Shown here: positions 6,813 through 63,476 of the stretch, piece after piece | How positions within the stretch are numbered: the first letter of the stretch is position 1 | Layout: every line of letters starts with the position of its first letter | From: a virus | Taxonomy: Duplodnaviria; Heunggongvirae; Uroviricota; Caudoviricetes | Length of the DNA: 64,000 bases | IMG/VR virus record: IMGVR_UViG_3300038499_000012 | Span: 1 to 64,000 of that record | Direction: 5' to 3' (one strand) | Notes under the pieces: generated by a model | The model's database searches: none | What the model saw: only the letters and a program-made list of their open reading frames with translations | What the model was told of the DNA's origin: nothing | Program-made: the position numbers and the translations under genes

Positions 6813-6816
6813 TCGT

Positions 6817-6833
6817 TTCCCCTGTATAATACA
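6817..6833 (+). promoter_or_regulatory. promoter motif ttCCCCtGTATAATAca (member of a recurring CCCCGTATAATAA family)
   Basis: TATAAT at ~6825-6830, only ~6 nt from the ATG at 6837; the transcript could be leaderless. Confidence 0.35.
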
Positions 6834-6836
6834 GAC

Positions 6837-10507: not shown

Positions 10508-10979
10508 AGACGAAGTTAAAAGTTTGTTTGAAAGACATACTAAAAAGAACTACAAGAAAAGTGGTACTTTCCTTTATAGGTTCCCTTCTGAAAACGAAAC
10601 AGTTCTGACCATAGTTGCGGGAAAGCTTGAGGCTTTGAAAACTGCGGTATTCGGTGAGTCTGTTGTACTCCGTAATATATCTCTCGGTAGCTCAGCCGAA
10701 ACATACATCATTGATCTAGTAGTTTTTGCAAAAAGATACGACCTGATTGAAAAAAGTGTGACTGTTGACAAAGTCTTATGGAAATATTGCGAAGCAATAG
10801 GCAAAGTTGAAGCCTTCTGTTATCATGGAAAAACGATAGAGTTTGTTGCTCCTTGGGGGGAGAAAATGTTGTGTGAAGACGGGGATTACATAGCCAGGCC
10901 CTTGGGCGGTTCCCCCGAAGATATTTATAGAATTGAAAAGCAAACATTCAATCAGACTTATACGGAGATAGTAACCTAA
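10500..10979 (+). CDS. hypothetical protein
   Basis: ORF overlapping the upstream stop. Confidence 0.3.
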   Translation: MNKDEVKSLFERHTKKNYKKSGTFLYRFPSENETVLTIVAGKLEALKTAVFGESVVLRNISLGSSAETYIIDLVVFAKRYDLIEKSVTVDKVLWKYCEAIGKVEAFCYHGKTIEFVAPWGEKMLCEDGDYIARPLGGSPEDIYRIEKQTFNQTYTEIVT

Positions 10980-14476: not shown

Positions 14477-16342
14477 ATGATACAAAACGAAATCGACTTC
14501 TGCAGAAAAATTGTTGACCTTGCTGATGCAATCAAATTCCATACCTATTCCGTTCCTGCCGTGACCAAATCCAAACTGAATCCCAAGGGTAAAAAGGCAA
14601 AGCAGAAGGTTTTTCCGGCCTACCGTGCAATTCTCCAACCTGATGGACTTACCTTGTTGCCCCAGCAATATCGTAACGAGAACGTCTTAGAACATGCCTA
14701 CGCCCTTCAATACCGAAACTGTCCAGCCGATACCTCAGAATCCCGAGCAATCTACGGCTCAGATATCCGATTGGAAGTTCGAAAGAAGAAAGAGATCTGG
14801 GTCCGAAATCTTGAAACTCCGCTACTCAATAGCATAGTCTCTTCAGAACTCAGGACCATCAAAAATGCCCTAGCTCTGAGTTCTAAACGGATCCTGGAAT
14901 TCTACCAAAAACGAATGGATGAGTTCACCAATAGGGACCAGAACGGCAACACCCTAGACGATAACGAAGACATCGTATGCGGAATCTTCCTACACATAGA
15001 CTGTTCAATCCTTGGTTACGAACATTGGTACGAGATCCCCGGTGTACTTTCCGCTTCAGATACAGCCGAAATCATGAGGATCACCAACGAAGTTGGTGAA
15101 AAGAAGAAAGAGGCCGCATTTTTGGCCGTACCTGGGGAAGAATGCTATTCACTAGTCAAAAGTCTTCTCAATACGGTTGCATCCGGGGATGAGTCCTCAG
15201 ACAACCAGTTTCAGGATTTTGATTTGGCCGCACGACACAAATCATTCTCGTTAACGTCAGACGATAGACGAATCGTCGCTTTCTATTGGTCAAAAACGAT
15301 GAACATGCTCCGTGTTTCTATTCCCAAGACAAAAGGAGAATATTTCTTCAGAGTTGTGCCGTGCGGTGATTTCAGTCCTATGAATGCCCAAATGTTTATT
15401 GATAACCAAAAAGCATTCAGGGGCAAGTTTGATACCCAAGAGAAAGCCGAAAGTGGGGTATCAGAAGAGGACGATAATATCGAAATTATGCCTGACGAGC
15501 CTATTGATGGGTACGATAAAAAGATCTACAACATGGCCCAACAGGCCCCCTCGGGAATCACCTCGTTCGATATAACCCTTATGCACCGGGAATCCCATGG
15601 ACAGACAAATGTCTCAGAACTATCCAGACTCTACAGAAGTTCGTTCTGCCGGCAACTCAAACGTATCGAGGCGGTCTCGGAAGAAGTCACAAAAAAATAC
15701 AAGTGCACTTGGGAACCCCAGATATGGTCCGCACTGAATACCATCTACTCTCGGTGTGAAAAACGATATCTCAATATCATCGGGCAGATTTTTATGAAGT
15801 TATGGTCCGGAAGCTACAGAGGAATAGCTTCCCTTAAAGAACTTTTTATTGACGGAATACAATACAACATTCGCAATTCGGAAGGGCCTGGTGAATACGC
15901 CCTTCGTGTGGCGTACTTATTCTTGAAAAAACTCAACACAACGGAGGAGCAGATGGATGAAAAATCTTACCGTCTAGGAGAACTCTGTGCCGAGTTCTGC
16001 TGGCCCTTGATCTATCAGATCGGAAGTTTTGATAAGCAGTATTCAGGGTACATCACAAGGAAAGTCAAAAGTGTTGATGAGGTCACTGAGTTCATTGTTT
16101 TCTCCGAGGGAAAACTGATCCTGCATGCAGGTGAAATGATGTATGCCACTGGAAAAGGAGGTCAATTTCCTATCGGAGTAGTTCCAGATACAAGCTACTA
16201 CGCACTGGAAGCTCGAAAGCTCATCAAGGAAGGAATCGAAAAGTTTGATGCGCTTTCCTTTGCCGACGGATACTACTTCATGCGTGGTAACAAATTGTAC
16301 ACTTCCAAAAAAGGAGGCCAGAGTGAAGAATCAAGAGGTTAA
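14477..16342 (+). CDS. putative Cas8-like large subunit (divergent; possibly encodes Cas11 from an internal start)
   Basis: First gene of the cas operon, 621 aa, immediately upstream of cas7 with overlap. I see no recognisable motif; the assignment is positional only. Confidence 0.35.
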   Translation: MIQNEIDFCRKIVDLADAIKFHTYSVPAVTKSKLNPKGKKAKQKVFPAYRAILQPDGLTLLPQQYRNENVLEHAYALQYRNCPADTSESRAIYGSDIRLEVRKKKEIWVRNLETPLLNSIVSSELRTIKNALALSSKRILEFYQKRMDEFTNRDQNGNTLDDNEDIVCGIFLHIDCSILGYEHWYEIPGVLSASDTAEIMRITNEVGEKKKEAAFLAVPGEECYSLVKSLLNTVASGDESSDNQFQDFDLAARHKSFSLTSDDRRIVAFYWSKTMNMLRVSIPKTKGEYFFRVVPCGDFSPMNAQMFIDNQKAFRGKFDTQEKAESGVSEEDDNIEIMPDEPIDGYDKKIYNMAQQAPSGITSFDITLMHRESHGQTNVSELSRLYRSSFCRQLKRIEAVSEEVTKKYKCTWEPQIWSALNTIYSRCEKRYLNIIGQIFMKLWSGSYRGIASLKELFIDGIQYNIRNSEGPGEYALRVAYLFLKKLNTTEEQMDEKSYRLGELCAEFCWPLIYQIGSFDKQYSGYITRKVKSVDEVTEFIVFSEGKLILHAGEMMYATGKGGQFPIGVVPDTSYYALEARKLIKEGIEKFDALSFADGYYFMRGNKLYTSKKGGQSEESRG

Positions 16343-17309
16343 GCAGGTCGAGGTCGAGACCAATGGCGTTAAGAGGGCGGATCTTCTGATTCTGTGGACC
16401 AGCAGAAATTGCATCGTGAACGGTGATCCCTGGACAGGAGAGCAGCGCTATGATGAAGCCACAGGCAGACCTCTGTGCTCTGATGTCAGGCTTAAGGCCT
16501 TCGCCAGATGGTATGCAGACCACATACACCTTTTCGAACCCGGCCATCCTGCTCTGGATGTGTTTTTCAAGGATTTCACGCAGAGTGATATAGCTCTAGC
16601 CAGGGCCGAGAAAGAAGGGGCATCAGGAGCTTCCGTTCGGGTGCGTATGCTCAAGGCCAAGTACAAACCGGAAGAGGACTTGAAGACTCTGGTTCTCAAG
16701 TGCCTCGATTCTCGTGGTTTCGGAAACGTCGTCACGGAGAAGAAGACTCCGGTGCATCTCACAGGCCCGATCCAGTTCGAGCAGCTCAATCCGACTCTGC
16801 ATCAAGTGAAGCTGATGGAAAACCAGAATACCTGTCATCTTCCATCAGATATCAAGAACAATGCAGGAGCAATAGCCACCAGCAGCCTGGTTCCCTTCAG
16901 CATCAACCAAGTGGTCGGCGGGGTCTATTCAATCCTCGCTCTCGAAACCGGCCTGACGGAAGATGATGTCATCCTCATTCTTCGGTGCCTGTGGCGGGGA
17001 ATAAACTGTTACAAGAGCCGGAGCAAGATGGGGCAGAATTCAAGACTGATCTTGAAGATCAACTATCAAGATCTGGCAACAGCAACCGCCGATCTGAATA
17101 CCTTGGTCACACTCAAGAATTCAGAAGACAAAGGCCTTCGCAGAATAGACCAAGCCGTATGGGATTTTTCGAGGCTGGACAATCTCATGAAGGACCCCAA
17201 TGTCGTAACGGTTGAGTATCGTGCGGATTCCTTCATGAAGCCGGTACTCCTGGGTGCCATCTCGAAAGATACGGTTTCTAAAATGGTCGAGTTGCAAGGT
17301 CTCTGGTAA
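16323..17309 (+). CDS. cas7: Cas7 (Cascade backbone subunit; DevR/Csd2/Csh2-like N-terminal motif)
   Basis: GTG start 5 nt after aaggagg; track start 16245 is probably too far upstream. N-terminal NGDPwtgeqRyDeaTGrplcSDVrLKafaRwY resembles the NGDPDxxNxPRiDpeTGxGLVTDVCLKRKIRNY motif of I-B/I-C Cas7 and is also similar to CasC. Confidence 0.55.
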   Translation: MKNQEVKQVEVETNGVKRADLLILWTSRNCIVNGDPWTGEQRYDEATGRPLCSDVRLKAFARWYADHIHLFEPGHPALDVFFKDFTQSDIALARAEKEGASGASVRVRMLKAKYKPEEDLKTLVLKCLDSRGFGNVVTEKKTPVHLTGPIQFEQLNPTLHQVKLMENQNTCHLPSDIKNNAGAIATSSLVPFSINQVVGGVYSILALETGLTEDDVILILRCLWRGINCYKSRSKMGQNSRLILKINYQDLATATADLNTLVTLKNSEDKGLRRIDQAVWDFSRLDNLMKDPNVVTVEYRADSFMKPVLLGAISKDTVSKMVELQGLW

Positions 17310-17638
17310 GAAAAGAGAAGGTAAAGACCTTACACGGAAAAACGTGTAGGGTCTTACCAACTCATAGGAGTACTCGGTCAATTACCACCAGCACAAGGCT
17401 GGAGGCTTGTCCTTCCAAATTTCGTCCAGAGAACGATGACTCTAATGAGTCATAACGGAGGACTATAAGCCAATTGACTGTGGCTCATTATCATACAGCA
17501 TGCTGTATGATAATCACTTGTACTCAGAACTCTGTGAGTACTCGCTACAGTTCCTAAGATACATTATGGAAGAGAGCACGAGTCATTACTCGCTTCCTCC
17601 GCCACCACAAGGGTAGCGGTTTCCGCTCGTGAGGTTTT
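17310..17638 (+). other. structured non-coding spacer inside the cas operon (hairpins and a perfect 28-bp palindrome)
   Basis: No ORF. Imperfect ~16-bp hairpin with 6-nt loop (ggtaaagaccttacacg/cgtgtagggtcttacc) at ~17320-17358. atgactcTAATgagtcat at ~17436-17453. Perfect 28-bp palindrome attatcatacagca|tgctgtatgataat at ~17487-17514. gtactcagAACTctgtgagtac at ~17520-17541. Stem ggaag...cgagtCATTactcg...cttcc at ~17568-17610. Confidence 0.5.
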
Positions 17639-18385
17639 ATGAAAGCCGTAACCATACGAATTTCTGGTAGCCGGGCGCATTTCAAGCGGCCAAATACCAA
17701 CAACAATCCATGTACTTATGCCGTTATTCACAAACCAGCGCTTTTTGGAATCATGGGCGCTGTCTGTGGAATTCAGAGGGCAGAAATGGCATCCCTCTAT
17801 CCTAAGCTGTGCAGTGAAAATAAATCTGACGGCATAAAGATGGCCCTTCGAGTTCTAAATCCTATTTCAAAAGAGGCACATGGATTCACAAAACGAAATG
17901 TCACTCCAGTTCCTGAGCGCCAAGGGGATTTGAAGGGCTTTAAGAACAATTCCCGTGGCAGAAGGTTCTGTGAAGTCCTTCGAGATCCTTCTTATGAGGT
18001 CACACTGGGATCTCAGAATCCTCAATTCGTTGAGATATTATCGACCTTCAAAAATCAGATACTAGCCAATAGGTCGATTTATCCACACTACCTCGGCAGT
18101 ATTAACTGCATGTGTCAGCTGGCCTTCATATCGGACTCAGAAGTATCGGAAGAAAAAAACGGTGAGTTCTCTACCCGACACATTGTTACGAAAACAGGCC
18201 ATGAAATTTCTGACACAGGAGATATGGATATTCTGTGTGAGAATATCCCGATCGCAGAAGATGCCAATAGGAGATACACAGCCACTGCCGATGTCTATTG
18301 TTTCTGGGAAGGCCTACTGGACGTAAAAGGTTCTTATCAGACCATTTCCAACCAAACCGGAGATGCCACAGCATGTTTCATCTAA
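17639..18385 (+). CDS. cas5: Cas5
   Basis: N-terminal ISGSRAHFKRP...ALFGIMGAVCGIQR resembles E. coli CasD (LAGPMQAWGQP...LLGLLGACLGIQR) and the AhFrxP signature of Cas5 proteins. Confidence 0.6.
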   Translation: MKAVTIRISGSRAHFKRPNTNNNPCTYAVIHKPALFGIMGAVCGIQRAEMASLYPKLCSENKSDGIKMALRVLNPISKEAHGFTKRNVTPVPERQGDLKGFKNNSRGRRFCEVLRDPSYEVTLGSQNPQFVEILSTFKNQILANRSIYPHYLGSINCMCQLAFISDSEVSEEKNGEFSTRHIVTKTGHEISDTGDMDILCENIPIAEDANRRYTATADVYCFWEGLLDVKGSYQTISNQTGDATACFI

Positions 18386-20961
18386 GCTCCTATACGCTCA
18401 ACTGCATCTCGCACCCAGGCAAAAAACTCCTTCGTCATTCACAAGGTACGACGAAGGGACTCCTTGATCTATTGCCCAAAATAGCACGCCACTTAAAAAA
18501 AGTTGCTGCTGTGGTGGGCAATTTTCATGATACAGGAAAATTCCTTAATCGATATTTTCAGGACAAGCTTAGAGGAATCCTTTATAAAGACAAGTACACA
18601 CATCACTCCTACCTATCCATGATGTCCCTTTTGGGTTTTTTGCTTCCCGGTAATCATCAATACCGCTCCTACAGGGATATGGTAATAGCCCTGATATGCA
18701 TCATTAAACACCACGGAGGCATTCCGAATCTGGATAAACTAATCAACGACAAAGAACTAAAACAAATGCGGGATTACATCACAGAAGTCCAGTCAAAAGG
18801 ACTTCTTCCAGATATAACGGAATTCAGGCATCAAATAGGATTCGATGGAGACACGAAGCCTGTGTCAGAAATCAAGGACAGCTTGATACGATGTATTTTT
18901 TCTAGGGCAGATAAAATAAACAGCATTTTTACTCGAATCAGCGAGGAAGATCGATTGGGATTTTGGCTTGATTTGAGAATGGTGTTCTCCTGCTTGGTGG
19001 CTGCGGACAAGCAGGATGCAGGAGATCACAAACTTGATATAAATGACAAATTCCTTCGAAAGAAATTTCATAAAGGTATTAAGGCTTACATTGATAATCT
19101 TTCTAAAGTAGTAGCGAAAACGGAGAACGCTAGGAAACTGAACCTTATCCGAACCGAGATGAGAAAAGTGGCGGTACAGAACCTGATAGAAGTCGTAGCC
19201 GCCAATCCTGATAGGCGTCTATTTCAGCTCACATACCCGACAGGAGCGGGAAAAACGGTCATTCTGTACTGCTGTGGCTCGGTGATTCAACTGAAGAAAG
19301 GTTCCCGAAGAATAATATATTCCGTACCTTTTCTTTCTATAACGGATCAGGTTGCTACCATCATAGAGGAAATCTTCCCAAACGAGGAAGATAACATTCA
19401 GCGCATTGATTCCAAGGCCCAACCGGATGAAGATTTGGACTATGACCTGACATCAAGCGGTGATGATGTATCACCCTTGATGGAGGCGCTAAAAAAGTTC
19501 ATAAAAAACTTCATAAAGTTTACACTTAAAAAAGATATCAGTGACATCTCCGCAAACAAAATTCTTAAACAAGAACTCCAGGAGATTTGCTTCTCTTACC
19601 CATTGATCACAACTACATTCGTGCAGATGTTCCAAACTCTGACTACAGCCTCCAACCGTGGACTGATGAGATACAACGGGCTCTCTGGGTGTATATTTCT
19701 GATAGATGAAATTCAGGCCCTCCCACCGAGGCTCTACAACTTTTTAGTGGCACTTCTGGATGCCTTCTGCCGGCGCTTTGATAGCTATGCAGTTATATCA
19801 TCCGCAACAATGCCTTATTTCGATATACCGACGAAGTCAAAAGAAGGCCAGAAAATGTTTCCTGGCTACATGCCCCCTATCGAAATAGGAGACATCAGCT
19901 ACTTTGATGACCCCATCTTCAATCGGTATGATATCGTCGGTATAAAGACCAAGATGACCGTCGATAGTATTGCAGAGAAAATCCGCAAAGAGGAAAAATC
20001 CACTCTAGTGATATTGAACACGAAGAAGGATGCCAAAAGAGTCTATAAAAGAGTCAAAAAGACCGGAGAGGATGCAATTCTGCTTACAAGTTTGAATTGT
20101 GACCGGCAGGATATTTTAGACCTGTGTCAAAAAAAGTTAGATAACCATGAGCGCTTCTTTCTCATATCTACAAATCTCATAGAAGCTGGTGTGGATATCG
20201 ACTTCTGCACAGTATATCGAGAAATAGCCCCCCTGCCGAATATCATTCAGAGCGCAGGTCGAGGTAATAGAAATGGCAATCTCTACCCAGATAGAGCAAC
20301 CATTTATGTTTTTGATTTGATCGACGACAAGGGACGATCCCGATCAAAGTGTATATACAATGGCGATGTCGATGGACCATCCTTAGAATATGCTAAAAAA
20401 ATATTCCTTCTATCCGACAGGATTGCCACACCTGAATTAGAACTCCTGTCCCTTCAAAAGGCTTTCTTTATGGAACAGGGAGAAAATCTCTATTTTGGAA
20501 CTTGGGATTTCTCGATGCCTATCGAGGATGAGGAAGAAGATGAAGAAGAATACAAAACAAAACCAAAAAGGATGAACTTCGTAGATCTCATCAATGGATT
20601 CCAGTATGGAGACATTGGAAGATTTAGGCTGATTCCTGAATGCCGCTACGGAGCGCAGGTTCAATTCTATGTTCCAGAATCGGACGAGGATAAGAGATTT
20701 GAGAAGTTGGTGGAGTATCAGGCCGCGATTCAACAATCGGAAGAAGAGGACGTCCCTATTAAGACAAGGCTGGCTAATAAAAGGAAACTCCATCTACACC
20801 TTCGGGAAATGATGCCTCGGGTAGTTCAGATGAATCTTGGCGAAAAGGACCCTCCTCTTTCAGAGTTAGCAGAGTATGAAGGTATGGTGAGCCATTTGTA
20901 TAAACTAAAGCTGAAATACTACAGTAAGGAATACGGTATAACCTGGGAGGAACAACAATGA
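18373..20961 (+). CDS. cas3: Cas3 (HD nuclease + SF2 helicase)
   Basis: HD motif (VVGNFHDTGKF). Walker A YPTGAGKT. DExQ box LIDEIQALP. SAT motif SATMP. Helicase C-terminus QSAGRGNR. Start taken as the Met overlapping the cas5 stop. Confidence 0.8.
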   Translation: MFHLSSYTLNCISHPGKKLLRHSQGTTKGLLDLLPKIARHLKKVAAVVGNFHDTGKFLNRYFQDKLRGILYKDKYTHHSYLSMMSLLGFLLPGNHQYRSYRDMVIALICIIKHHGGIPNLDKLINDKELKQMRDYITEVQSKGLLPDITEFRHQIGFDGDTKPVSEIKDSLIRCIFSRADKINSIFTRISEEDRLGFWLDLRMVFSCLVAADKQDAGDHKLDINDKFLRKKFHKGIKAYIDNLSKVVAKTENARKLNLIRTEMRKVAVQNLIEVVAANPDRRLFQLTYPTGAGKTVILYCCGSVIQLKKGSRRIIYSVPFLSITDQVATIIEEIFPNEEDNIQRIDSKAQPDEDLDYDLTSSGDDVSPLMEALKKFIKNFIKFTLKKDISDISANKILKQELQEICFSYPLITTTFVQMFQTLTTASNRGLMRYNGLSGCIFLIDEIQALPPRLYNFLVALLDAFCRRFDSYAVISSATMPYFDIPTKSKEGQKMFPGYMPPIEIGDISYFDDPIFNRYDIVGIKTKMTVDSIAEKIRKEEKSTLVILNTKKDAKRVYKRVKKTGEDAILLTSLNCDRQDILDLCQKKLDNHERFFLISTNLIEAGVDIDFCTVYREIAPLPNIIQSAGRGNRNGNLYPDRATIYVFDLIDDKGRSRSKCIYNGDVDGPSLEYAKKIFLLSDRIATPELELLSLQKAFFMEQGENLYFGTWDFSMPIEDEEEDEEEYKTKPKRMNFVDLINGFQYGDIGRFRLIPECRYGAQVQFYVPESDEDKRFEKLVEYQAAIQQSEEEDVPIKTRLANKRKLHLHLREMMPRVVQMNLGEKDPPLSELAEYEGMVSHLYKLKLKYYSKEYGITWEEQQ

Positions 20962-21482
20962 AAGCATTTATTGTCGAGGGCGTCACATTAGGAGAAGACA
21001 GTTATACCAAGCATCAGCAGATTGCCGACCTGATTGATAGCAAAAATACTCGATTCCATGAAAGAGAAGACGGTTCCATCGTTCTTCTCTCAGAAACAAT
21101 GCCTGAGGGATCCAAATACACGGCCGTTGGAATGTCTTATTCTAAGGGTGAGATTCTTTCTTTCTCTATCAGAGCTTGTGTCTCAAAACGGTCAGGGGAT
21201 AAAGAAATTCCAATAACCAATATGACAGAGATAGTCAATTGGATAACCAGAAAGGCCAGAGAAAATGGTTTTGTTATCAACTTTTTTGACAATATTGAAG
21301 GCCCTTGTGTCAGAGATGTGACCAAGCCTGGATTTGTTTTCAAAATCAGTACCGTAGATTTTGCCGGCAACCTTACAGTCCTTGACAAGGACTTATTCGA
21401 CCGGGCCTTGAGAACCGGCATTGGAAGAAAAAAAGCTTTTGGCTGTGGAGTTCTCTGTGTTACGCGTAGTACAGATGTTTGA
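20958..21482 (+). CDS. cas6e: Cas6e (CasE) crRNA endoribonuclease
   Basis: C-terminal G-rich loop GIGRKKAFGCGVLCV matches E. coli CasE GIGPAKSMGCGLLSL. ~175-200 aa. ATGA overlap with cas3. Confidence 0.65.
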   Translation: MKAFIVEGVTLGEDSYTKHQQIADLIDSKNTRFHEREDGSIVLLSETMPEGSKYTAVGMSYSKGEILSFSIRACVSKRSGDKEIPITNMTEIVNWITRKARENGFVINFFDNIEGPCVRDVTKPGFVFKISTVDFAGNLTVLDKDLFDRALRTGIGRKKAFGCGVLCVTRSTDV

Positions 21483-21638
21483 TTTCCCGCCCACGCGGGA
21501 GTTTAATAATGAGACGCACTACTGTGCAGGAAGATCTTTCCCGCGTGACGCGGGAGTTGAATGTATAGAGTGTCGAGAACAGATGCAGCGTCATGATCTT
21601 TCCCGCATCACGCGGGGGTTGAATTAAGAGATTATTAA
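21483..21638 (+). CRISPR. mini CRISPR array (3 repeat-like units, 2 spacers) between cas6e and cas1
   Basis: Units tttcccgcccacgcgggagtttaat, ctttcccgcgtgacgcgggagttgaat and ctttcccgcatcacgcgggggttgaat, separated by spacers of ~28 and ~35 nt. Confidence 0.6.
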
Positions 21639-22508
21639 ATGATCTACACAGATTTAAGTGGCCGCCTACCTTTTGTCTATGTAGAAATGGGAAAGCTTAG
21701 GGTATCAGGAGCTTCCCTTGTTTTTGTCAGTGAATCCTCTGTGATTGCTATCCCCGTAGGTAGGATAGCTGCCGTATTCCTTGGACCTGGAATTTCTGTT
21801 ACGGACAGGGCTGTTCATTTGGCCGCTACTGCCGGAAGTATGCTTCTATGGGTAGGTGAGGGAATTACCAAGTGCTACGCAGTGTTACCTACACACCATC
21901 AATCCTCAAAGAATCTTTTATCCCAAATTGAGCTCCTCACCAAACATAAGACTAAAATCTTAAAACGATACACACTGCTTAGGTTTGGAAAAAAACTGCT
22001 GGCTTGGGAACGGCTTAATGAAAATAAGATACGAGGGATAGAGGGCAGCTTCATGAGAAAGGTATATGTAGAATGTGCTAAAAAATTCGGTATTCCCTAC
22101 GGAGGTCGATCCAAAGAGGGGTCCTGGGAAAACAATTCGGTCTATAATAAAGCCATCTCTATATGTAATTCTTACTTATACGGCATGGCTACAGCGGTTT
22201 TGATTGCCTTGGGTTACTCCCCAGCTCTTGGAATTCTACATAATGGAGACTCCTTCTCATTGTCCTTTGATATTGCCGACCTTTATAAACACAAGTTTTC
22301 GATACCTTTGGCATTTGAAGCGTCAAAAAAAGTCTTGGGATCGGATAACATCAGAATAGAAAAAGAAATCAGGATCATGGCTTTAGAAAAAATGAAGGGC
22401 ACTAATTTCGTTAAAGCTATGGTAGAAGATATTCAGGAAATATTCGATGACGGTATTCATCACGAAAAGAATATCAACGAGGACGAGGCGACTTCTGTCA
22501 GCTTATAA
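21639..22508 (+). CDS. cas1: Cas1 (type I-E-like integrase)
   Basis: VGRIAAVFLGPGISVTDRAVHLAATAGSMLLWVGEG aligns closely with E. coli YgbT VGSVACIMLEPGTRVSHAAVRLAAQVGTLLVWVGEA. GIEGSFMRKVY and YGMATAVLIALGYSPALGILHNG are also conserved. Confidence 0.85.
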   Translation: MIYTDLSGRLPFVYVEMGKLRVSGASLVFVSESSVIAIPVGRIAAVFLGPGISVTDRAVHLAATAGSMLLWVGEGITKCYAVLPTHHQSSKNLLSQIELLTKHKTKILKRYTLLRFGKKLLAWERLNENKIRGIEGSFMRKVYVECAKKFGIPYGGRSKEGSWENNSVYNKAISICNSYLYGMATAVLIALGYSPALGILHNGDSFSLSFDIADLYKHKFSIPLAFEASKKVLGSDNIRIEKEIRIMALEKMKGTNFVKAMVEDIQEIFDDGIHHEKNINEDEATSVSL

Positions 22509-22734
22509 TGCTGAGGTATCTTTAGGGGTTTACGTAGGATACCACAACGAAGGCGTGTATATGCGTATTCTTAAATGGTTGAGAAAAAATATAAAGGGGA
22601 ATGAAAAAATACTTATATTGCGTCCGGATAAATCCTGGATTGGCTTCTCAGATGAGTATTTTAATTGGGAATCTCAAGCGGTGTACTTAGATGGTGTTAA
22701 GTTATATAAACCTCTTCATTATTCTTCCGAATAA
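22447..22734 (+). CDS. cas2: Cas2 (type I-E-like)
   Basis: MTVFITKRISTRTRRLLSAYNAEVSLGVYVG aligns with E. coli YgbF ...[22 protein letters not shown]. Overlaps the cas1 3' end. Confidence 0.65.
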   Translation: MTVFITKRISTRTRRLLSAYNAEVSLGVYVGYHNEGVYMRILKWLRKNIKGNEKILILRPDKSWIGFSDEYFNWESQAVYLDGVKLYKPLHYSSE

Positions 22735-22797
22735 CCCATGTTTTAGTGCCCGTTCTTTGAAATAACACATTGATGTAAAAGGACATACCCTTTAAGG

Positions 22798-25700
22798 GTC
22801 TTTCCCGCGTCACGCGGGGGTTGAATATTACATTGTCGGGGTATTCGGGGTAGTCGGATGTCTTTCCCGCGTCACGCGGGGGTTGAATGAGTATGCCCCT
22901 TATACCGTAGGAGGAGACCGGTCTTTCCCGCGTCACGCGGGGGTTGAATTGGACTACGTATACGATACCTGTAGGTCTGTCTGGTCTTTCCCGCGTCACG
23001 CGGGGGTTGAATTCCGGTAGATTTGAGATCGTGTATTAGTTGGGGGTCTTTCCCGCGTCACGCGGGGGTTGAATCCCGAGTCCCTGTCTGTCGTAATATT
23101 GTGATCCGTCTTTCCCGCGTCACGCGGGGGTTGAATTATGGGAATAGGTGGGCCATCTATAGTAGTCTGGTCTTTCCCGCGTCACGCGGGGGTTGAATAA
23201 GAACTCTATAGCAGCGTAAGGAACTTTTGTTTTGTCTTTCCCGCGTCACGCGGGGGTTGAATTATCTACCCGACCGGGAATTCTTCCTCGGTCAGGTCTT
23301 TCCCGCGTCACGCGGGGGTTGAATCTTATCAAGTATGTACACAGGGTATGTTGTGGAGTCTTTCCCGCGTCACGCGGGGGTTGAATAATCGTCTGACCGT
23401 GCACGGACGCCCTCGGTTTGGTCTTTCCCGCGTCACGCGGGGGTTGAATGCCTGTGCACGTTATGGATGCAGACTGAGCGGCGTCTTTCCCGCGTCACGC
23501 GGGGGTTGAATATACTCCATGATCGCAGAGTGCATAGCACTGTTGTCTTTCCCGCGTCACGCGGGGGTTGAATCCACTAAATTGATCTATGATCACAGGG
23601 GGAAGTCTTTCCCGCGTCACGCGGGGGTTGAATGCCTGTGCACGTTATGGATGCAGACTGAGCGGCGTCTTTCCCGCGTCACGCGGGGGTTGAATGATGT
23701 GGATTTGAAGAAACTCGATATACCCGATTGTCTTTCCCGCGTCACGCGGGGGTTGAATCATCTTGTCCCCGTTTTTTGTACCGTCATAGTTGTCTTTCCC
23801 GCGTGACGCGGGAGTTGAATCATGGTAACGTCACGTCCAGACCGTGTCGCAGCGTCTTTCCCGCGTGACGCGGGAGTTGAATTCCCCGTGTGGTCAAAGT
23901 GGCTGGTAAAGTTGTCTGTCTTTCCCGCGTGACGCGGGAGTTGAATACAATCAGCTCAGTTCCGAACCGGCAGACGATCGTCTTTCCCGCGTGACGCGGG
24001 AATTGAATTTCCCGAAGTAGTTGGACAGAACTTCGTCCATGGTCTTTCCCGCGTGACGCGGGAGTTGAATATTCCCCCAATCCTCCGTTGTCCAACCCAG
24101 TTTGAGTCTTTCCCGCGTGACGCGGGAGTTGAATCCTACTTCAAACACGGACTTTTCAGCTGGTGGTCTTTCCCGCGTCACGCGGGGGTTGAATATGGAC
24201 GAGGCCTATGTTGATATCTTCAGCAGGTCTTTCCCGCGTGACGCGGGAGTTGAATCATTTCTCCGATACGCCTATGGTCAGATTTATTGTCTTTCCCGCC
24301 TACGCGGGAGTTGAATTGTTTACGATTTAAGAAAAGAGGGCTATTTGGAACATGTCTTTCCCGCCCACGCGGGAGTTGAATACCAAGACACGAATAGAAA
24401 TGGTGTTTCAGTCTTTCCCGCGTGACGCGGGAGTTGAATACTCTCGATTCGTGGTTTTATGCCAGACTATCTGGTCTTTCCCGCGTCACGCGGGGGTTGA
24501 ATCTATTATTCGTTGCTCTCGCAGGAAAGTCTTTCCCGCATCACGCGGGAGTTGAATGTGGTCAAGCGGGTTCTCACCGGATTCTGCGTCGTCTTTCCCG
24601 CCCACGCGGGAGTTGAATCAGCGGAATGCTAACCGGGGCAATATCCATTCCGTCTTTCCCGCGTGACGCGGGAGTTGAATAATCGGCTGTGTAGGAGGGA
24701 GGAGAGTGTGAAGTCTTTCCCGCATCACGCGGGAGTTGAATCCTGTACGATGAGTTCTTCTCCAAGGCGAAGTCTTTCCCGCGTCACGCGGGAGTTGAAT
24801 CTCATCAACAGCGTCAACACGTACCATCAACAGCGTCAACACGTACCGTGGAACGTCTTTCCCGCCCACGCGGGAGTTGAATTGGGGGTATCTATCAACG
24901 GGTCCCCCGTTTTGTTGTCTTTCCCACGTGACGCGGGAGTTGAATTATCATCTGCTTGTATGCCTCAAGGCAGACCTGGTCTTTCCCGCGTAGGCGGGAG
25001 TTGAATAATCCACTACGCAGACGAGATCATTAGTGATAGTGTCTTTCCCGCCTACGCGGGAGTTGAATACCGCCATCATCCGACGCCCGAACCTAGTGGT
25101 GTCTTTCCCGCGTGACGCGGGAGTTGAATTAAACACGGATCTTCGGCGACGACATTACCCAGTCTTTCCCGCACCACGCGGGAGTTGAATATTTCGAACC
25201 TACCTAGGGATAGTAATGAGGTGGTCTTTCCCGCCAACGCGGGAGTTGAATTCTCGAGGCGCTCTTGAAGGTTGTCAACCCGCAGTCTTTCCCGCATCAC
25301 GCGGGAGTTGAATAGGCATCCGAATAACGAAACCAGAAACGTTCTGTCTTTCCCGCCTACGCGGGAGTTGAATTAACCGATTGACTTGTCAAGTGCTAGT
25401 AGTGATGTCTTTCCCGCCTACGCGGGAGTTGAATTACACTCCATATGATCCGGAACCAATCCAGAAGAGTCTTTCCCGCCTACGCGGGAGTTGAATCATA
25501 TCTCCATAAACATTCGTCAAGAAGTTTGGTGGTCTTTCCCGCACTACGCGGGAGTTGAATCATCATGTCGTTCTCGCCAAGGAATGAACGGAATCTTTCC
25601 CGCACCACGCGGGAGTTGAATTGTAGGCCGTCCTACGCGGTTTGGTGGGCACTGCGTCTTTCCCGCCCACGCGGGAGTTGAATAGGCATCCGAATAACGA

Positions 25701-26369
25701 AACCAGAAACGTTCTGTCTTTCCCGCGTCACGCGGGAGTTGAATACAATGTCATCTCAGGGTGGTGTACTGGCGAATCTGTCTTTCCCGCGTGACGCGGG
25801 AGTTGAATCCTTCTGGACATACATGCAGAGACCCAACAAAGGGGTCTTTCCCGCGTGACGCGGGAGTTGAATCCCGTACCCTCGTTCCACGCTATTGACA
25901 CGCCGGTCTTTCCCGCGTGACGCGGGAGTTGAATTTCCTCGGTCGGGAACGTCGTTTCCAGGTCGTCAAGGTCTTTCCCGCCTACGCGGGAGTTGAATAC
26001 GACTATGGGAAGCAAATCAAGGATGTCGTAATCTTTCCCGCATCACGCGGGAGTTGAATGTGGTAGGACCCTGTATCTCAGGCTGTATCTTAGGCCGAGA
26101 AGTCTTTCCCGCCCACGCGGGAGTTGAATCACCGGCGTACAGATGGGTGCTGCCATGCAGCAGTCTTTCCCGCGTAGGCGGGAGTTAAATTATTCGTTTG
26201 TGGACCATGCCTTGACCTAGTCTTTCCCGCGTCACGCGGGAGTTGAATAGCTGCCGCTTCTTTTGCAGCTCTCACCGTCGGTCTTTCCCGCCCACGCGGG
26301 AGTTGAATCACACCCTGCTGGAAGAACGTATGGTCCGTCACTGTCTTTCCCGCGTAGGCGGGAGTTGAA
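22798..26369 (+). CRISPR. CRISPR array, 58 repeats (28-29 nt) and 57 spacers (mostly 32-33 nt); leader on the cas2 side
   Basis: Consensus GTCTTTCCCGCGTCACGCGGGGGTTGAAT with hairpin cccgcg/cgcggg followed by an 8-nt handle (I-E style). Repeats 1-16 are identical; repeats 17-58 carry ...GCGGGAGTTGAAT with many loop variants (TGAC, CTAC, CCAC, ATCAC, ACCAC, CAAC, GTAGG). Degenerate repeat remnants extend to ~26500. Confidence 0.95.
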
Positions 26370-26563
26370 TAGTTGAATAGTTGAATCTAAGAGTAATGGA
26401 AGAATTATTTTGTAGTTACTTTTCCCATCTACATAGAATGGGAGTTAAATAGGCTATATTCGAGGGATCAAATTTCCCGCGTAAGCGGGAGCATTTTATT
26501 ATGTTTTTTGGATACGGGTGTATAATAAGAACGGGTATAAGGAGTATTTCCCGCGTCAAACGG

Positions 26564-27517: not shown

Positions 27518-27940
27518 ATGAAATATTTACTTGTTTTGGTGGGGATTGGGCTTCTTCACTTGGCTTGTGGTGATGCGGGGAATCCTGTAACAGGCACCAA
27601 AGACACTCTATACGTCAGGGATACCCTGATCATAAGGGATTCTTTGACTATTCGTGATTCTATGACCATAAAAGACACATTGGTGATTAAAGACACTCTG
27701 GTCAAAAAGGATACCATAAGCAGACGGGATACGCTAATTACCAGAGATACGATGTTCCGCAAAGACACCATATTCAGCAAAGATACGGTGTTCAGCAAAG
27801 ACACGGTATTCAGTAAGGACACCTTAATCCGAAGACACCCTGGTAAGAAAAGATACCCTAATCCGAAGGGATACATTGGTAAGGAGAGACACCCTAATCC
27901 GAAGAGATACATTGGTTTACATAGATTCTGTTTTGATTAG
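27518..27940 (+). CDS. lipoprotein with hexapeptide (K/R)DT(L/V)x(I/V) tandem repeats
   Basis: Signal peptide and lipobox LLHLAC. About 17 tandem 18-bp DNA repeats encode RDTLII/RDSLTI/KDTLVI... Confidence 0.4.
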   Translation: MKYLLVLVGIGLLHLACGDAGNPVTGTKDTLYVRDTLIIRDSLTIRDSMTIKDTLVIKDTLVKKDTISRRDTLITRDTMFRKDTIFSKDTVFSKDTVFSKDTLIRRHPGKKRYPNPKGYIGKERHPNPKRYIGLHRFCFD

Positions 27941-31083: not shown

Positions 31084-31304
31084 CCATCCAAAGGGAGACC
31101 TTTATGGACGAACAGGATACCTTCCCCATTGATGATGAACTCTTCGGAAAAAGCTCTTTTGAGGACATGGTCGAGGAGTCCGAAAAAGCCTCACTTCCTC
31201 CAGAGGATTTTCGTGAAAGCTCTTTTGAGGACATGGTAGAGGAGTCCGAAAAGGCCTCACTTCCTCCCGAGGAAATGCCTGATTGCCGCAAAGAAGAAGA
31301 TTAA
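31080..31304 (+). CDS. small acidic protein with 21-aa tandem duplication
   Basis: SSFEDMVEESEKASLPPE appears twice, from a 63-bp tandem DNA repeat at ~31153-31278. Confidence 0.3.
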   Translation: MTIQRETFMDEQDTFPIDDELFGKSSFEDMVEESEKASLPPEDFRESSFEDMVEESEKASLPPEEMPDCRKEED

Positions 31305-38171: not shown

Positions 38172-38693
38172 TCAATTTCCTTCGCTAACAGTATGATCGG
38201 TCAGATATCCTATTTTCAAATCAAGTTTCTTAAAATCCGCACATACTCCCAAGCAGTTACATCCACAGTCATTGTGAAATTTAATGTTCCGCAGACTGGA
38301 ATTCCTAATCAAAATACAGGCAATATCAACATGCATCATATGATCAACAACCTTCAGTTGATAATCCCTAGTCCAACAGCACACCGCTCCATGATCTTGA
38401 TTCACCGACAGAAACTGGATCATCCTCTGAACGGTATCTGATTTTAGGATGACATCCCGATTCATCATCAAAAAGTATTCATCATCAGGCCAGTTCTTCA
38501 GCGCACAATCCCTGAGAATATTCCGACACTCTGTTATCGATAGAAGACCCTTAGTCTGATCAGGCTGACTCGGATCATCTCTTTGAGGCCTGGATACACA
38601 AACCGGCTCCAGTGGCACTGTTTGATTTGCCAGCCCATACAGAACCTTTCTGTGGAGCTCCATGCCATCCTTTAGCGGGATGAGTGCTTTCAC
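38172..38693 (-). CDS. hypothetical protein
   Basis: ORF inside the tail-fibre cluster. Confidence 0.3.
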   Translation of the reverse strand: MKALIPLKDGMELHRKVLYGLANQTVPLEPVCVSRPQRDDPSQPDQTKGLLSITECRNILRDCALKNWPDDEYFLMMNRDVILKSDTVQRMIQFLSVNQDHGAVCCWTRDYQLKVVDHMMHVDIACILIRNSSLRNIKFHNDCGCNCLGVCADFKKLDLKIGYLTDHTVSEGN

Positions 38694-41080
38694 AGGTGGC
38701 CACCGCCATATTTCAAGAGGATTCGAGCTACCTTCCCATTATTAGCCGGCACGAAATATGCGTACTTATCATCTATGAATCCTCCGCTGAATGAAGTAGA
38801 TCCAAGCAATCTGGCATAAATACTTCCAAATTGCACACAGGCGTAAACATCTCCGTTAGGAGCTGCGGCCATACTGCTCCACAGTCGGGACGTCTGTCCC
38901 AATGGAAGGAAATCTCCTACGCCAATCGTCTGCTTATAAATATCTCCATTCTCAACACAGGCGTAAACATCTCCGTTAAAAACTGCAGCCATGCCGTGCC
39001 AGTATCTGGCTGTCAGTCCCAATGTAAGGAAATCTCCTACACCACCCGCCTGCTTGTAAATGTTTCCAGGGCCATACACACAGGCATAGACATCGCCATT
39101 AGGAGCTGCGGCCATGCCCCTCCAATTTCTGGACGACTGTCCTAATGCAAGGAAATCTCCTACGCCCCCCGTCTGCTTATAAATGTCTCCACCTTGCACG
39201 CTGGCATAGACATTACCATTAGGAGCTGCGGCCATGCAACTCCAATTTTGACTCCCTTGTCCTAATGCAAGGAAATCTCCTACACCCCCCGTCTGCTTGT
39301 AAATGTCTCCACCATACACACAGGCATAGACATTACCATTAGGAGCTGCGGCCATGCCCCTCCAATTTTGACTCCCTTGTCCTAATGCAAGGAAATTTTC
39401 TATGCCTCCCGTTTGCTTGTAAATGTCTCCAGGACCATATACACAGGCATAGACATCACCATTGGGAGCTGCGGTCATGCCCATCCAGTATCTGGACGTC
39501 TGCCCTAATGTAAGAAAAGCACTCGCATCTGTAGAGGCAATCATATACGGAAAAAGATTCAGCACGCTCACTGTAGTGAAATCATACAAATCCACCCGAG
39601 CTAACTTGCATCCTGATCCACCTTTGTTTGGTACCAAATATCCGTACCGACCATCAGTGAATCCACCCTCAAATCCTACCAAGCTTGCATCCGTATTTGC
39701 CAAATTAAGGTATGAAACAGAGGTGAAATCCGTCAGATTAATCCTAGTGAAGTAACCATGATAGGCTGTTCCATCTAAAGTATGAGGTACAAGATATGCA
39801 CAGCTTCCATCCGTGAATCCTCCGCTGAATCCTTTTAGATTGGCGTTGTAGTCCGTTAGATTCAGAATACCAATGCCGGCAGCAGCGAAATTGGTAAGAT
39901 CTACTCGTACAAACTTTCCGAATGCAGCACCGTTGTTGTAAGGAACATAGTACCCGTATTTTCCGTCTGTGAATCCACCTCTGAAACCCTTCAGGCTTGA
40001 ATCAGTAAGGGCCAGATCCAATACAGTTGCTGTAGAAAAATTACCAAGATCTATCCGTCCTATATGTCCTGAAGTACTTCTATCTGGTACGTAATATCCA
40101 TAGGCACCATCCGTGAATCCTCCCCAGAATCCATATAGTTCTGAATCACTGGCTGGCATATTAAGAGACATTACTGTAGTGAAATCTGAAAGATCTATTC
40201 TACATGCTCTACCTGACGTATCACTACCATTTGGAACACAATACCCATATCTTCCATCCGTGAATCCTCCCCTGAATTTTCTTAAATCTGCGTGTGTTGA
40301 TGTCAAATTCAAAATACGTACAGAGGAATCATAAGGGTCTACCCTAGCTATTTTTCCATAATTGGTATTAGGAACAAAATAAGAATATCTTCCGTCAGAA
40401 AATCCTCCACTAAATCCAGTCAGGTCTGTATCCGCATCCGACAGATTTATAACGGTTGGCCTACCTAATGCATAGTAAGGAGAGTATCCACGAAGTCCGG
40501 TGTACCCCTGTACTCCTGTCTGACCTACGAGTCCCGTCTGTCCTATAAGTCCTGTTTGACCCTGAACTCCTGTTTGGCCTTGTACACCAGTCTGCCCTTG
40601 TACTCCTGTCTGCCCTATGAGTCCCGTCTGCCCCTGTATTCCTGTCTGCCCTATGAGTCCCGTCTGTCCTTGTACACCAGTCTGTCCCTGTACTCCTGTC
40701 TGACCTATGAGTCCCGTCTGCCCTGTGAGTCCCGTCTGTCCTGTGAGTCCTGTTTGACCCTGAACTCCTGTTTGGCCTTGAGTACCGCCGCTCGTTATCA
40801 TCGCAACCCAATTGGCGTTATTTGTACCATCAATAAGCTGCCAGATAACGTTATCATCAATCTGATATAGGGCCATGCCTTCGACACGAAAGGCATCAGG
40901 AAAACTGGATCGATCGACAGCGGAAGAGACGGTTCTCCATCCTCCAGGATAAGACATAGTACCGTCTACTTGGGCATTACCAGTAACATGAAGTCTTTGG
41001 AGAGTGTAGCTATCCGAGGCGTCCAATTTGGTATGATCAATAGCTCCGTCTGCTATCCATCGGCCTAATATCTGAGACAT
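38690..41080 (-). CDS. tail fibre protein with collagen-like GQTG repeats and ~47-aa tandem repeat modules
   Basis: Conserved N-terminus RWIADGAIDHTKLD. About 35 G-X-Y triplets (GQTGVQGQTGLTGQTG...). Repeats of ...DLxDFtTVxxLNLxxxDxxLxGFxGGFTDGxYGYxVP and NGDVYACVxGGDIYKQTGG. Confidence 0.55.
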   Translation of the reverse strand: MSQILGRWIADGAIDHTKLDASDSYTLQRLHVTGNAQVDGTMSYPGGWRTVSSAVDRSSFPDAFRVEGMALYQIDDNVIWQLIDGTNNANWVAMITSGGTQGQTGVQGQTGLTGQTGLTGQTGLIGQTGVQGQTGVQGQTGLIGQTGIQGQTGLIGQTGVQGQTGVQGQTGVQGQTGLIGQTGLVGQTGVQGYTGLRGYSPYYALGRPTVINLSDADTDLTGFSGGFSDGRYSYFVPNTNYGKIARVDPYDSSVRILNLTSTHADLRKFRGGFTDGRYGYCVPNGSDTSGRACRIDLSDFTTVMSLNMPASDSELYGFWGGFTDGAYGYYVPDRSTSGHIGRIDLGNFSTATVLDLALTDSSLKGFRGGFTDGKYGYYVPYNNGAAFGKFVRVDLTNFAAAGIGILNLTDYNANLKGFSGGFTDGSCAYLVPHTLDGTAYHGYFTRINLTDFTSVSYLNLANTDASLVGFEGGFTDGRYGYLVPNKGGSGCKLARVDLYDFTTVSVLNLFPYMIASTDASAFLTLGQTSRYWMGMTAAPNGDVYACVYGPGDIYKQTGGIENFLALGQGSQNWRGMAAAPNGNVYACVYGGDIYKQTGGVGDFLALGQGSQNWSCMAAAPNGNVYASVQGGDIYKQTGGVGDFLALGQSSRNWRGMAAAPNGDVYACVYGPGNIYKQAGGVGDFLTLGLTARYWHGMAAVFNGDVYACVENGDIYKQTIGVGDFLPLGQTSRLWSSMAAAPNGDVYACVQFGSIYARLLGSTSFSGGFIDDKYAYFVPANNGKVARILLKYGGGHL

Positions 41081-41095
41081 TGCGAATGTTCCTGA

Positions 41096-42781: not shown

Positions 42782-42808
42782 TCCTGCTCAATCCGTGCTA
42801 AAAGATTA

Positions 42809-43993: not shown

Positions 43994-44002
43994 ATCTTCT
44001 CC

Positions 44003-45112: not shown

Positions 45113-45113
45113 A

Positions 45114-45812: not shown

Positions 45813-45821
45813 GATGATTCC

Positions 45822-63431: not shown

Positions 63432-63476
63432 GGACCTGAACCCAAATCAGGTGGGTAGCCATTACCCTACACTCCG
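63395..63476 (-). tRNA. tRNA (type II-like long variable arm; isotype uncertain, anticodon loop TTTGGGT)
   Basis: Cloverleaf: acceptor CGGAGTG/CACTCCG, D-arm GGGT-AATGGCT-ACCC, anticodon stem CCTGA/TCAGG, variable hairpin TCCC-TAAC-GGGA, T-arm GCAGG-TTCGAGT-CCTGT, discriminator A, no encoded CCA. Confidence 0.55.

Follow-up and report, generated by a model that had tools for sequence, protein, structure and literature searches.

Loop variants in near-random order along the CRISPR array of a predicted phage-borne I-B/I-E hybrid system

In type I-E systems, the RNAs transcribed from CRISPR arrays, the crRNAs, carry a handle of 8 nt at the 5′ end and, at the 3′ end, a hairpin of 21 nt in which a stem of 7 bp holds a loop of 4 nt; type I-B repeats are described as unstructured (PMC5965381). 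CRISPR arrays evolve not only by acquisition; recombination contributes as well (Kupczok et al, 2015; PMC4524480). The array described here belongs to a CRISPR-Cas (CRISPR-associated) locus in the virus record IMGVR_UViG_3300038499_000012, a contig from a short-read metagenome (coverage 9.38); the full 64,000-nt stretch of it that was analyzed is referred to as the window. The hairpin stem of the repeats is kept almost without change, and the loop occurs in nine versions which, from repeat 17 on, follow one another in near-random order.

The locus shares with type I-E (Escherichia coli K-12 and Thermus thermophilus) homologues of Cas6e, Cas1e, and Cas2e, an array placed after cas2, repeats of 28–29 nt in which ∼4 nt precede a stem of 7 bp with a loop of 4 nt and a short tail follows, and spacers of ∼32–33 nt; folded with RNAfold, the E. 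coli I-E repeat shows the same geometry as that of the window. Unlike type I-E, the window locus contains I-B-like proteins in place of Cse1/Cas8e, Cse2/Cas11, Cas7e, and Cas5e, and its repeat ends in (A/G)TTGAAT rather than ATAAACCG, the predicted handle being (A/G)GUUGAAU rather than AUAAACCG. It also departs from ordinary I-E arrays in that spacer length is looser (26–37 nt), the last repeat nucleotide is invariant, and the loop is not uniform within the array. With type I-B (Haloferax and Clostridium) it shares homologues of Cas8b, Cas7b, Cas5b, and Cas3, encoded in the order cas8-cas7-cas5-cas3, and the absence of a separate cas11. In contrast to type I-B, it has Cas6e instead of Cas6b, no Cas4, Cas1 and Cas2 of the I-E class, Cas7 and Cas5 that score below the NCBIfam I-B cutoffs, and a repeat that forms a stable hairpin. 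The 3′ repeat end, or handle, of I-B and related subtypes is of the ATTGAA type, and the window tail is similar. The repeat is thus as much of a hybrid as the gene set, joining an I-E hairpin to an I-B-type tail, from which we infer that Cas6e would read the hairpin and the I-B-like Cas5 the handle. An Rfam search gave no match to a CRISPR direct-repeat (CRISPR-DR) family, and literature searches found no description of this hybrid CRISPR-Cas family.

Repeat variants and their order along the array

A fuzzy repeat search and explicit parsing yielded a genuine CRISPR array of 58 repeats at 22798–26370 on the plus strand, with direct repeats of 28–29 nt and 57 spacers (mode 33 nt; 55 distinct sequences). 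The number of spacers is the one given in an earlier note on this array (hereafter the original prediction). The array had been drawn there up to 26500; the regular repeats end at 26370, and what follows, to about 26499, consists of short AGTTGAAT copies and degenerate repeats. Its main parts are the following.

22735–22797, plus strand: short leader, ending in AAGG right before repeat 1
22798–23758, plus strand: leader-proximal block, with repeats 1–16 (identical, type A) and spacers 1–15
23792–26370, plus strand: older block, with repeats 17–58 (15 repeat sequences, nine loop versions, invariant stem, near-random order)

As had been predicted, repeats 1–16 do not differ from one another (type A, GTCTTTCCCGCGTCACGCGGGGGTTGAAT), and the same sequence returns at repeats 23 and 28. 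All other repeats from 17 to 58 have the changed 3′ part that had likewise been predicted, ...GCGGGAGTTGAAT (one AATTGAAT and one AGTTAAAT), with A instead of G at position 22. The array has repeats of the form GTCTTTCCCGC...GCGGGAGTTGAAT and comprises 15 distinct repeat sequences in all; 16 repeats are 28 nt long, the others 29 nt, so the prediction that some were shorter was right, too.

When each repeat was split into 5′ flank, stem, loop, stem, and 3′ flank, variation proved to be restricted to the 4–5 nt of the loop, to position 22, and, rarely, to position 1. Of the 58 repeats, 57 have an intact stem core CCCGC/GCGGG (5 bp), and the 5′ flank (GTCTTT) and the tail (GTTGAAT) are each unaltered in 56; position 22, whether G or A, pairs with U. 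Of the earlier statement that loop and inner stem vary through at least eight versions, the part on the inner stem was therefore wrong, and the number needs correction to 15 repeat sequences and nine loop versions. The loop versions are GTCAC (21 repeats), GTGAC (13, or 14 with type H, which combines this loop with a stem change), CTAC (6), CCAC (6), ATCAC (4), GTAG (3), ACCAC (2), CAAC (1), and ACTAC (1). RNAfold predicted the same 7–8-bp hairpin for all 15 variants (−11 to −13 kcal/mol, compared with −7.5 kcal/mol for the stem mutant).

Copying of the leader-proximal repeat at each acquisition should leave every variant in one contiguous block. Repeats 17–58, however, comprise 35 runs in 42 repeats, an order indistinguishable from a random shuffle: identical neighbors occur seven times (4.9 ± 1.9 in shuffled arrays; p = 0.19), and neighboring repeats have a mean edit distance just marginally smaller than in shuffled arrays (p about 0.07). 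Copying at the leader end alone cannot, therefore, yield the near-random loop order of the older part. Two other causes of mixing were considered and rejected: non-polarized (internal) insertion of spacers, as it would enrich adjacent identical repeats, which are not enriched, and duplication within the array as the source of recurring variants, as only two spacers are duplicated.

The order also bears on the notion, put forward in the original prediction, of two repeat populations joined by array fusion. A single fusion of a type A with a type B array would account for the sharp boundary between repeats 16 and 17, where position 22 changes, and a related locus (L017, see below) does consist of two arrays in tandem with a leader-like stretch between them. 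In the window, however, this boundary has no leader remnant, repeats 23 and 28 are again of type A, and eight more loop versions follow in near-random order in the older part, with 35 runs where one fusion would give blocks. The boundary is more simply explained by an altered first repeat and the clonal acquisitions that came after it. As a complete explanation, a single fusion is contradicted by these observations and highly improbable; the two-population scheme is too simple.

As a control, the arrays beside 80 ordinary Cas1e genes from GTDB genomes (L039–L118) were parsed, and the 35 arrays with at least 15 repeats were used. These contained a median of one loop version (maximum four), a median fraction of non-major loops of 0 (maximum 0.27), and at most six loop runs; arrays of as many as 141 repeats kept a single loop version. 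The corresponding values for the window array are nine versions, 64%, and 34 runs. Between species, the loops of ordinary I-E arrays differ freely, which indicates that the loop is in general weakly constrained, and the near-uniformity within each array follows from the leader-proximal repeat serving as the template for every new one. That the Cas6e loop is under relaxed constraint, as originally predicted, is thus in line with the common fold of the 15 variants and with the freedom of the loop between species, but as the ordinary arrays are nonetheless near-uniform, it does not suffice: something must actively generate and mix variants in the window array. What is unusual in this array is the making and mixing of loop variants within one array.

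Variation within the ordinary I-E arrays (L039–L118) was almost wholly located at the last repeat nucleotide, the variants being interleaved (for example, in L066, L067, L100, and L102). This fits a last base that comes from the protospacer side, and was not seen in the family to which the window locus belongs.

The reading favored here, at somewhat better than even odds (a probability of roughly 0.55), is that the loops changed neutrally, in part through template-switch inversion, and that the resulting variants later changed places through gene conversion or recombination mediated by the repeats. Recombination between arrays had been named in the original prediction, and appears to be the best available explanation for the mixing.

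Related loci and the origin of the loop versions

Cas1 of the window falls into a clade of metagenomic relatives (41–54% identity), below which a gap leads down to ordinary Cas1e (≤35%); profile scans of IMG/VR and the GTDB representative genomes returned only the latter, at ≤35% identity. The gene order is common to at least seven distinct related loci. Their repeats are laid out alike, with 4 nt ahead of a stem of 7 bp, a loop of 4 nt, and a constant ...UUGAAU tail, and their stems differ in sequence yet pair, that is, they covary (CCTCAC/GTGGGG, CCCCGC/GCGGGG, CCCTCC/GGAGGG, ACTCAC/GTGGGT, and CCCTAT/ATAGGG). The junction of leader and first repeat reads AGG/G in six of nine family loci. 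A scan for the repeat pattern found none in IMG/VR or GTDB genomes, and only two single chance matches, neither in an array, on short contigs of the Joint Genome Institute (JGI); the whole array had no blastn match in INPHARED or PLSDB. From relatives L006, L037, and L038, the Logan contigs of which end at the first repeat, no arrays were obtained.

Three relatives (L009, L010, and L012) share 26 spacers and differ only at the cas2-proximal end, L012 differing from L009 in the first spacer only; a fourth (L011) has four trailer-end spacers, and only those, in common with them. Shared trailer spacers together with differences at the cas2 end indicate that new spacers enter next to cas2, as in other systems, and growth at this end makes the 16 type A repeats the youngest in the window.

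The loop versions of the window are connected by single transitions and a 1-nt insertion or deletion (indel): GTCAC to ATCAC to ACCAC to ACTAC, ACCAC to CCAC, ACTAC to CTAC, and CCAC to CTAC. In addition, two pairs of repeat types are exact reverse complements of each other in the hairpin core, namely, types G and B (GTCAC/GTGAC) and types D and I (CTAC/GTAG). The comparison of arrays among relatives, proposed with the original prediction, showed that such inversions are not confined to the window. Relatives L016, L017, and L018 have two main types of repeat, told apart by ACTT and AAGT, again an exact reverse complement. The change from ACTT to AAGT needs two specific substitutions at once, and by our own count only one of the 54 possible double substitutions of a tetraloop fits. 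In L017, ACTT and AAGT occur in 33 and 22 repeats, respectively, and alternate in blocks with a short mixed zone, which requires at least five switches. This locus comprises two tandem arrays with an AT-rich, leader-like stretch of 67 nt (10605–10671) between them; the two arrays have one spacer in common (position 59, equal to position 8 of L018).

Inversion of the sequence enclosed by short inverted repeats is a known outcome of template switching between them (PMC8604942, PMC8794818). The loops resemble the published cases of such hairpin mutation in that a change of several nucleotides equals the exact reverse complement of the loop (CTAC/GTAG and ACTT/AAGT), and differ from them in that both states are seen again and again along a single array. 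No account of template-switch inversion in CRISPR repeats came up in literature searches.

By analogy with types I-E and I-B, the array would be transcribed from left to right, starting from the short leader after cas2; Cas6e would bind the 7–8-bp hairpin of each repeat and cut at its 3′ base, which would leave the 8-nt (A/G)GUUGAAU as 5′ handle for an I-B-like Cascade complex. New spacers would enter at the cas2-proximal end, the first repeat being copied each time, and the 16 identical repeats would represent a recent, undisturbed clonal run of acquisitions. In the older 42 repeats, stem and handle would be under selection and the nine loop versions effectively neutral, with point mutation, 1-nt indels, and template switches of the polymerase across the palindrome as the sources of the variants. 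These would then have been shuffled through recombination mediated by the repeats or through gene conversion over short tracts, the partners being arrays of co-infecting relatives or several copies of the array within this phage. The situation is similar to that described by Kupczok et al (2015; PMC4524480) in that the order of elements is not explained by acquisition and deletion alone; there, recombination was deduced from spacer order across strains, whereas here it is deduced from repeat variants within one array.

Loop change might instead be coupled to acquisition itself. At integration, the strands of the first repeat become single-stranded gaps flanking the new spacer; a gap-filling polymerase could switch template to the other gap, which would invert the loop, or to other repeats, which would copy their loops, so that the new repeat samples the existing pool and no exchange between arrays is needed. 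Exact inversions in two independent lineages fit this idea, as does L017, where blocks of repeats inherit the flipped state, which is what a flip of the leader-proximal repeat would give. From repeat 47 to repeat 42, the loops can be read as single-step changes (CCAC, ACCAC, ACTAC, and CTAC), variants recur without duplicated spacers, as copying between repeats would have it, and duplications inside spacers and an 8-nt triplication (see below) show that slippage occurs here. On the other hand, the 16 newest repeats remained unchanged over 15 successive acquisitions, so that the process would need to have stopped; adjacent repeats, as noted, are just marginally more alike than shuffled ones; and how long a repeat is does not depend on how long the spacer from the same event is, the pairing of 28-nt repeats with spacers 1 nt longer (a ruler effect) being not significant (permutation p = 0.18). 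There is also no known precedent in CRISPR integration. Taken together, coupling to acquisition appears possible but doubtful.

Independent mutation in place, with the exposed loop as a hotspot at which the same few versions arise repeatedly after insertion, would agree with the fact that most loop steps are transitions (G>A, T>C, and C>T) at three loop positions and that the variable part of the array is the older one. Single loop changes in place do occur occasionally in relatives (GTAT in L009, GAAT in L007, and position 31 of L017). However, the 28- and 29-nt classes alternate ∼22 times, for which the same 1-nt deletion would be needed many times over, and ordinary I-E arrays hold a single loop version over as many as 141 repeats. 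Age alone does not bring about heterogeneity either: in L017, the oldest 15 repeats are uniform and a younger zone is mixed, and three samples with 38 common spacers show just three point changes in place and no inversions. Mutation in place is thus unlikely to have produced the pattern.

Several points weigh against neutral change followed by recombination as well. Shuffling to the present order, with ∼34 loop changes along the array, needs about as many exchange events as acquisitions, and as the searches found no donor array with these repeats, the recombination partners are hypothetical. The arrays of L009 and L013 are almost uniform, and in L017 inversions are confined to blocks, so that mixing as extreme as this is peculiar to this phage, a fact that the reading does not account for. 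GTGAC can also be reached from GTCAC by one point change, which leaves only CTAC/GTAG and ACTT/AAGT as specific arguments for inversion. No spacer matched INPHARED phages, PLSDB plasmids, the rest of the window, or the related loci; this is the outcome of the search for targets and self-targets suggested with the original prediction, and seed patterns of spacers 1, 11, and 41 found no match in IMG/VR either. (Spacers of the relatives, too, matched no other family locus, apart from 17 nt between spacer 8 of L007 and L021, which is probably due to chance.) No sigma-70 consensus promoter was found on the plus strand, and transcription, Cas6e cleavage, and interference are functions predicted by analogy. 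Finally, the three available assemblies (see below), which differ by not one single-nucleotide polymorphism (SNP), may all stem from a single read set. Mean spacer GC content (49.5%, compared with 44.8% for the phage) suggests a foreign source of the spacers.

Duplicated spacers, slippage products, and a second assembly

Two spacers occur twice, as had been predicted: spacer 11 (23450–23482) equals spacer 14 (23634–23666; 33 nt), and spacer 41 (25314–25345) equals spacer 47 (25684–25715; 32 nt). Apart from these, no two spacers have more than 10 nt in common. The repeats flanking the two copies of spacer 41 differ (types F/D and E/G, respectively), which favors independent re-acquisition over segmental duplication; the duplicated spacers are probably repeated acquisitions of the same protospacer.

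Comparison was made with the ENA contig ERZ1744398 NODE_3 (79,912 bp) and with a Logan contig that covers the mini-array (see below) and the first repeat, where it ends. Over the ∼20-kb flanks and the shared array, the ENA contig does not differ from the window: it has 49 repeats, and all 49 are the same variants beside the same spacers. The pattern, which lies far beyond chance, thus does not hinge on a single assembler. The sole differences between these assemblies are two segments absent from ENA, which are exactly the stretches bounded by the duplicated spacers, each with one spacer copy.

23483–23666, plus strand: 184-nt segment absent from the ENA assembly, composed of repeat, spacer 12, repeat, spacer 13, repeat, and the second copy of spacer 11
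25346–25715, plus strand: 370-nt segment absent from the ENA assembly, composed of repeats 42–47, spacers 42–46, and the second copy of spacer 41

Either some members of the population may have lost the stretches between the duplicated units by deletion and others not, or a cycle in the assembly graph may have been passed over by one assembler; in both cases, the cycle would need real joins from spacer 11 to 12 and from 13 to 11. An open reading frame (ORF) spanning 23483–23666 was looked up in other assemblies, and no record was found.

These differences lead to the question of whether the variants themselves are an artefact, that is, a chimeric consensus of co-existing arrays at ∼9-fold coverage or the result of errors in GC-rich hairpins, with the duplicated spacers as a mis-resolved graph cycle. 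The origin of the contig from short metagenomic reads would allow for this, the assemblies disagree precisely at the two segments bounded by duplicated spacers, and the lack of SNPs elsewhere suggests that they are based on one read set. Yet each variant lies between two unique spacers within ∼90 nt and is thus spanned by ordinary reads and long k-mers, ENA has the same variant at every shared repeat, and the Logan contig matches at the mini-array and the first repeat. Hairpin-induced errors are hard to reconcile with 16 successive, perfectly uniform type A repeats; a cycle would presuppose the real reads joining the spacers as stated above; and error correction should raise the likeness of repeats rather than lower it. 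An artefact is, consequently, very unlikely.

Three further features are of interest in this regard, as all three are products of slippage; the trailer that follows is listed with them.

24801–24854, plus strand: spacer 33, a 32-nt spacer grown to 54 nt by a perfect 22-nt internal tandem duplication (24803–24846; Tandem Repeats Finder, TRF)
26060–26101, plus strand: spacer 53, a ∼30-nt spacer grown to 42 nt by an imperfect 12-nt internal tandem duplication
26363–26386, plus strand: AGTTGAAT three times in tandem, that is, the last 8 nt of the final repeat and two extra copies (26371–26386), as read from the sequence
26418–26499, plus strand: two degenerate trailer repeats, the second of which (26470–26499) is a hairpin followed by a T-run, terminator-like for the array transcript

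The first of these had been described correctly in the original prediction; the second, where the duplicated units are CTGTATCTCAGG and CTGTATCTTAGG, had been recognized as over-long but taken for 43 nt, without the duplication. The triplicated AGTTGAAT corresponds to the predicted 5′ handle of the crRNA. If loops were shuffled by recombination, the same slippage- and recombination-prone replication could lie behind the duplications inside spacers, the triplication, and the loss or gain of segments between duplicated spacers.

The cas operon and its phage setting

The array is the last element of an operon with the gene order cas8b-cas7b-cas5b-cas3-cas6e-(three-repeat mini-array)-cas1e-cas2e-array. 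The individual assignments are as follows.

14477–16342, plus strand: cas8b-like large subunit, 621 aa (PADLOC Cas8b1, 70.5 bits, E 3.5e-20; no Pfam or NCBIfam match)
16245–17309, plus strand: cas7, type I-B-like (Csh2; Pfam Cas_Cas7, 96 bits; NCBIfam cas_Csh2, 108.9 bits, below the cutoff of 171.55; PADLOC Cas7b)
17639–18385, plus strand: cas5, type I-B-like (NCBIfam cas_Cas5h, 75.8 bits, below the cutoff of 97; TIGR02593 above cutoff; PADLOC Cas5b, 89.7 bits)
18298–20961, plus strand: cas3, HD nuclease and helicase (PADLOC Cas3b, 359 bits; NCBIfam cas3_HD above cutoff; cas3_core, 93 bits)
20958–21482, plus strand: cas6e-like, predicted crRNA endonuclease, 174 aa (NCBIfam casE_Cse3, 54.1 bits, above the cutoff of 45.2)
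21480–21624, plus strand: mini-array located between cas6e and cas1, made up of three repeats (loops CCAC, GTGAC, and ATCAC) and two spacers (26 and 33 nt)
21639–22508, plus strand: cas1, type I-E class (NCBIfam cas1_ECOLI, 225.6 bits, above the cutoff of 215.6)
22447–22734, plus strand: cas2, type I-E class (Pfam Cas_Cas2CT1978, 32.7 bits, above the cutoff of 24.7; NCBIfam Cas2e, 21.4 bits, below cutoff)

A gene caller placed the start of cas7 at 16323. The cas8b-like gene occupies the same place in all relatives. Cas6e matches chains of T. thermophilus Cse3 and E. coli CasE in the Protein Data Bank (PDB), and His19 and the C-terminal glycine-rich loop are invariant in all nine family members compared; the Cas6e alignment is otherwise too divergent to serve in scanning for loci. 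For Cas7 and Cas5, I-B models gave the best matches, and for the large subunit it was Cas8b. Cas1 reaches only 41.7 bits with the I-B model, for which the cutoff is 304. Neither cas4 nor cse1 nor cse2 was found in the operon. As judged from these matches, the locus appears to be a complete hybrid of I-B-like interference genes and I-E-like cas6e, cas1, and cas2.

The first repeat of the mini-array overlaps the stop codon of cas6e, and its sequence is the same in the ENA and Logan assemblies; relative L038 has a lone orphan repeat at this position (6800–6930). The mini-array could be a regulatory binding site for Cas6e or a second site of acquisition. Between cas7 and cas5, a 330-nt insert (17310–17638) is present that relatives lack, their cas5 starting within ∼70 nt of cas7 or overlapping it. 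Its predicted RNA fold (−125 kcal/mol, z = −7.5 compared with shuffled sequences) contains several long perfect hairpins, and no Rfam family matched; the insert may be a structured RNA or else a mobile element of small size.

On both sides, the CRISPR locus is flanked on the same contig by phage genes, as identified by PHROG matches. Upstream, these include the exonuclease subunit of a DNA polymerase and a methyltransferase (there are two methyltransferases in all); downstream, an M15 endolysin directly follows the array, and three collagen-like tail-fibre genes, rIIA, rIIB, and a helicase are among the matches beyond it. This gene content points to a CRISPR-Cas system borne by a large phage. 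A megablast search of the upstream 22.7 kb against INPHARED gave no match. CRISPR-Cas loci amid phage genes have been described before, for example, the type I-F system of Vibrio phage ICP1 and the systems of huge phages, from which the locus in the window differs in its subtype, its full acquisition module, and an array of ∼58 repeats. Huge-phage arrays are mostly short and often come without cas1 and cas2. By analogy with such systems, that of the window is presumably aimed at host defences or competing elements.

Elsewhere in the phage genome, three large ORFs (38690–47933, minus strand) with collagen-like periodic repeats of 18 nt (TRF) matched phage tail-fibre PHROGs, and a 120/243-nt tandem repeat lies at 38834–39518. 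Short tandem repeats at 27745–27916 (periods of 18 and 36 nt) and 31150–31273 (66 nt) are located in or near small ORFs downstream of the array, and a tRNA-Pro (TGG) gene is encoded at 63395–63476 on the minus strand. The phage setting, the hybrid cas module, the mini-array, the hairpin inversions, the slippage duplications, and the segments in which the assemblies differ are all points outside the original prediction.

I-B-like interference proteins that are combined with Cas6e and Cas1e-Cas2e, and with a repeat in which both types are merged, would constitute a natural case of swapped subtype modules, one that did not turn up in the collections of reference genomes and phages covered by the searches. 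A phage that has its own acquisition genes and a memory of 57 spacers would imply long-term active use of CRISPR. Viewed as natural mutagenesis, the repeat variants suggest that a Cas6e-type nuclease and Cas1-Cas2 may tolerate any loop of 4–5 nt, in either orientation, as long as stem and handle are fixed. The scrambled loop order would mean that arrays can be reshaped beyond addition at the leader end and deletion, which matters where arrays are used as chronological records. Only tentatively, the loops may be rewritten by a process tied to the palindrome, either template switching between the gaps of integration intermediates or copy-choice among repeats, that flips and reassorts them, and the differences may even be favored as they would cut down recombination between repeats and the loss of spacers in a phage that recombines very actively. 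If this were true, the repeat loops would be a natural event-by-event barcode of spacer acquisition and a new source of variation in CRISPR arrays.

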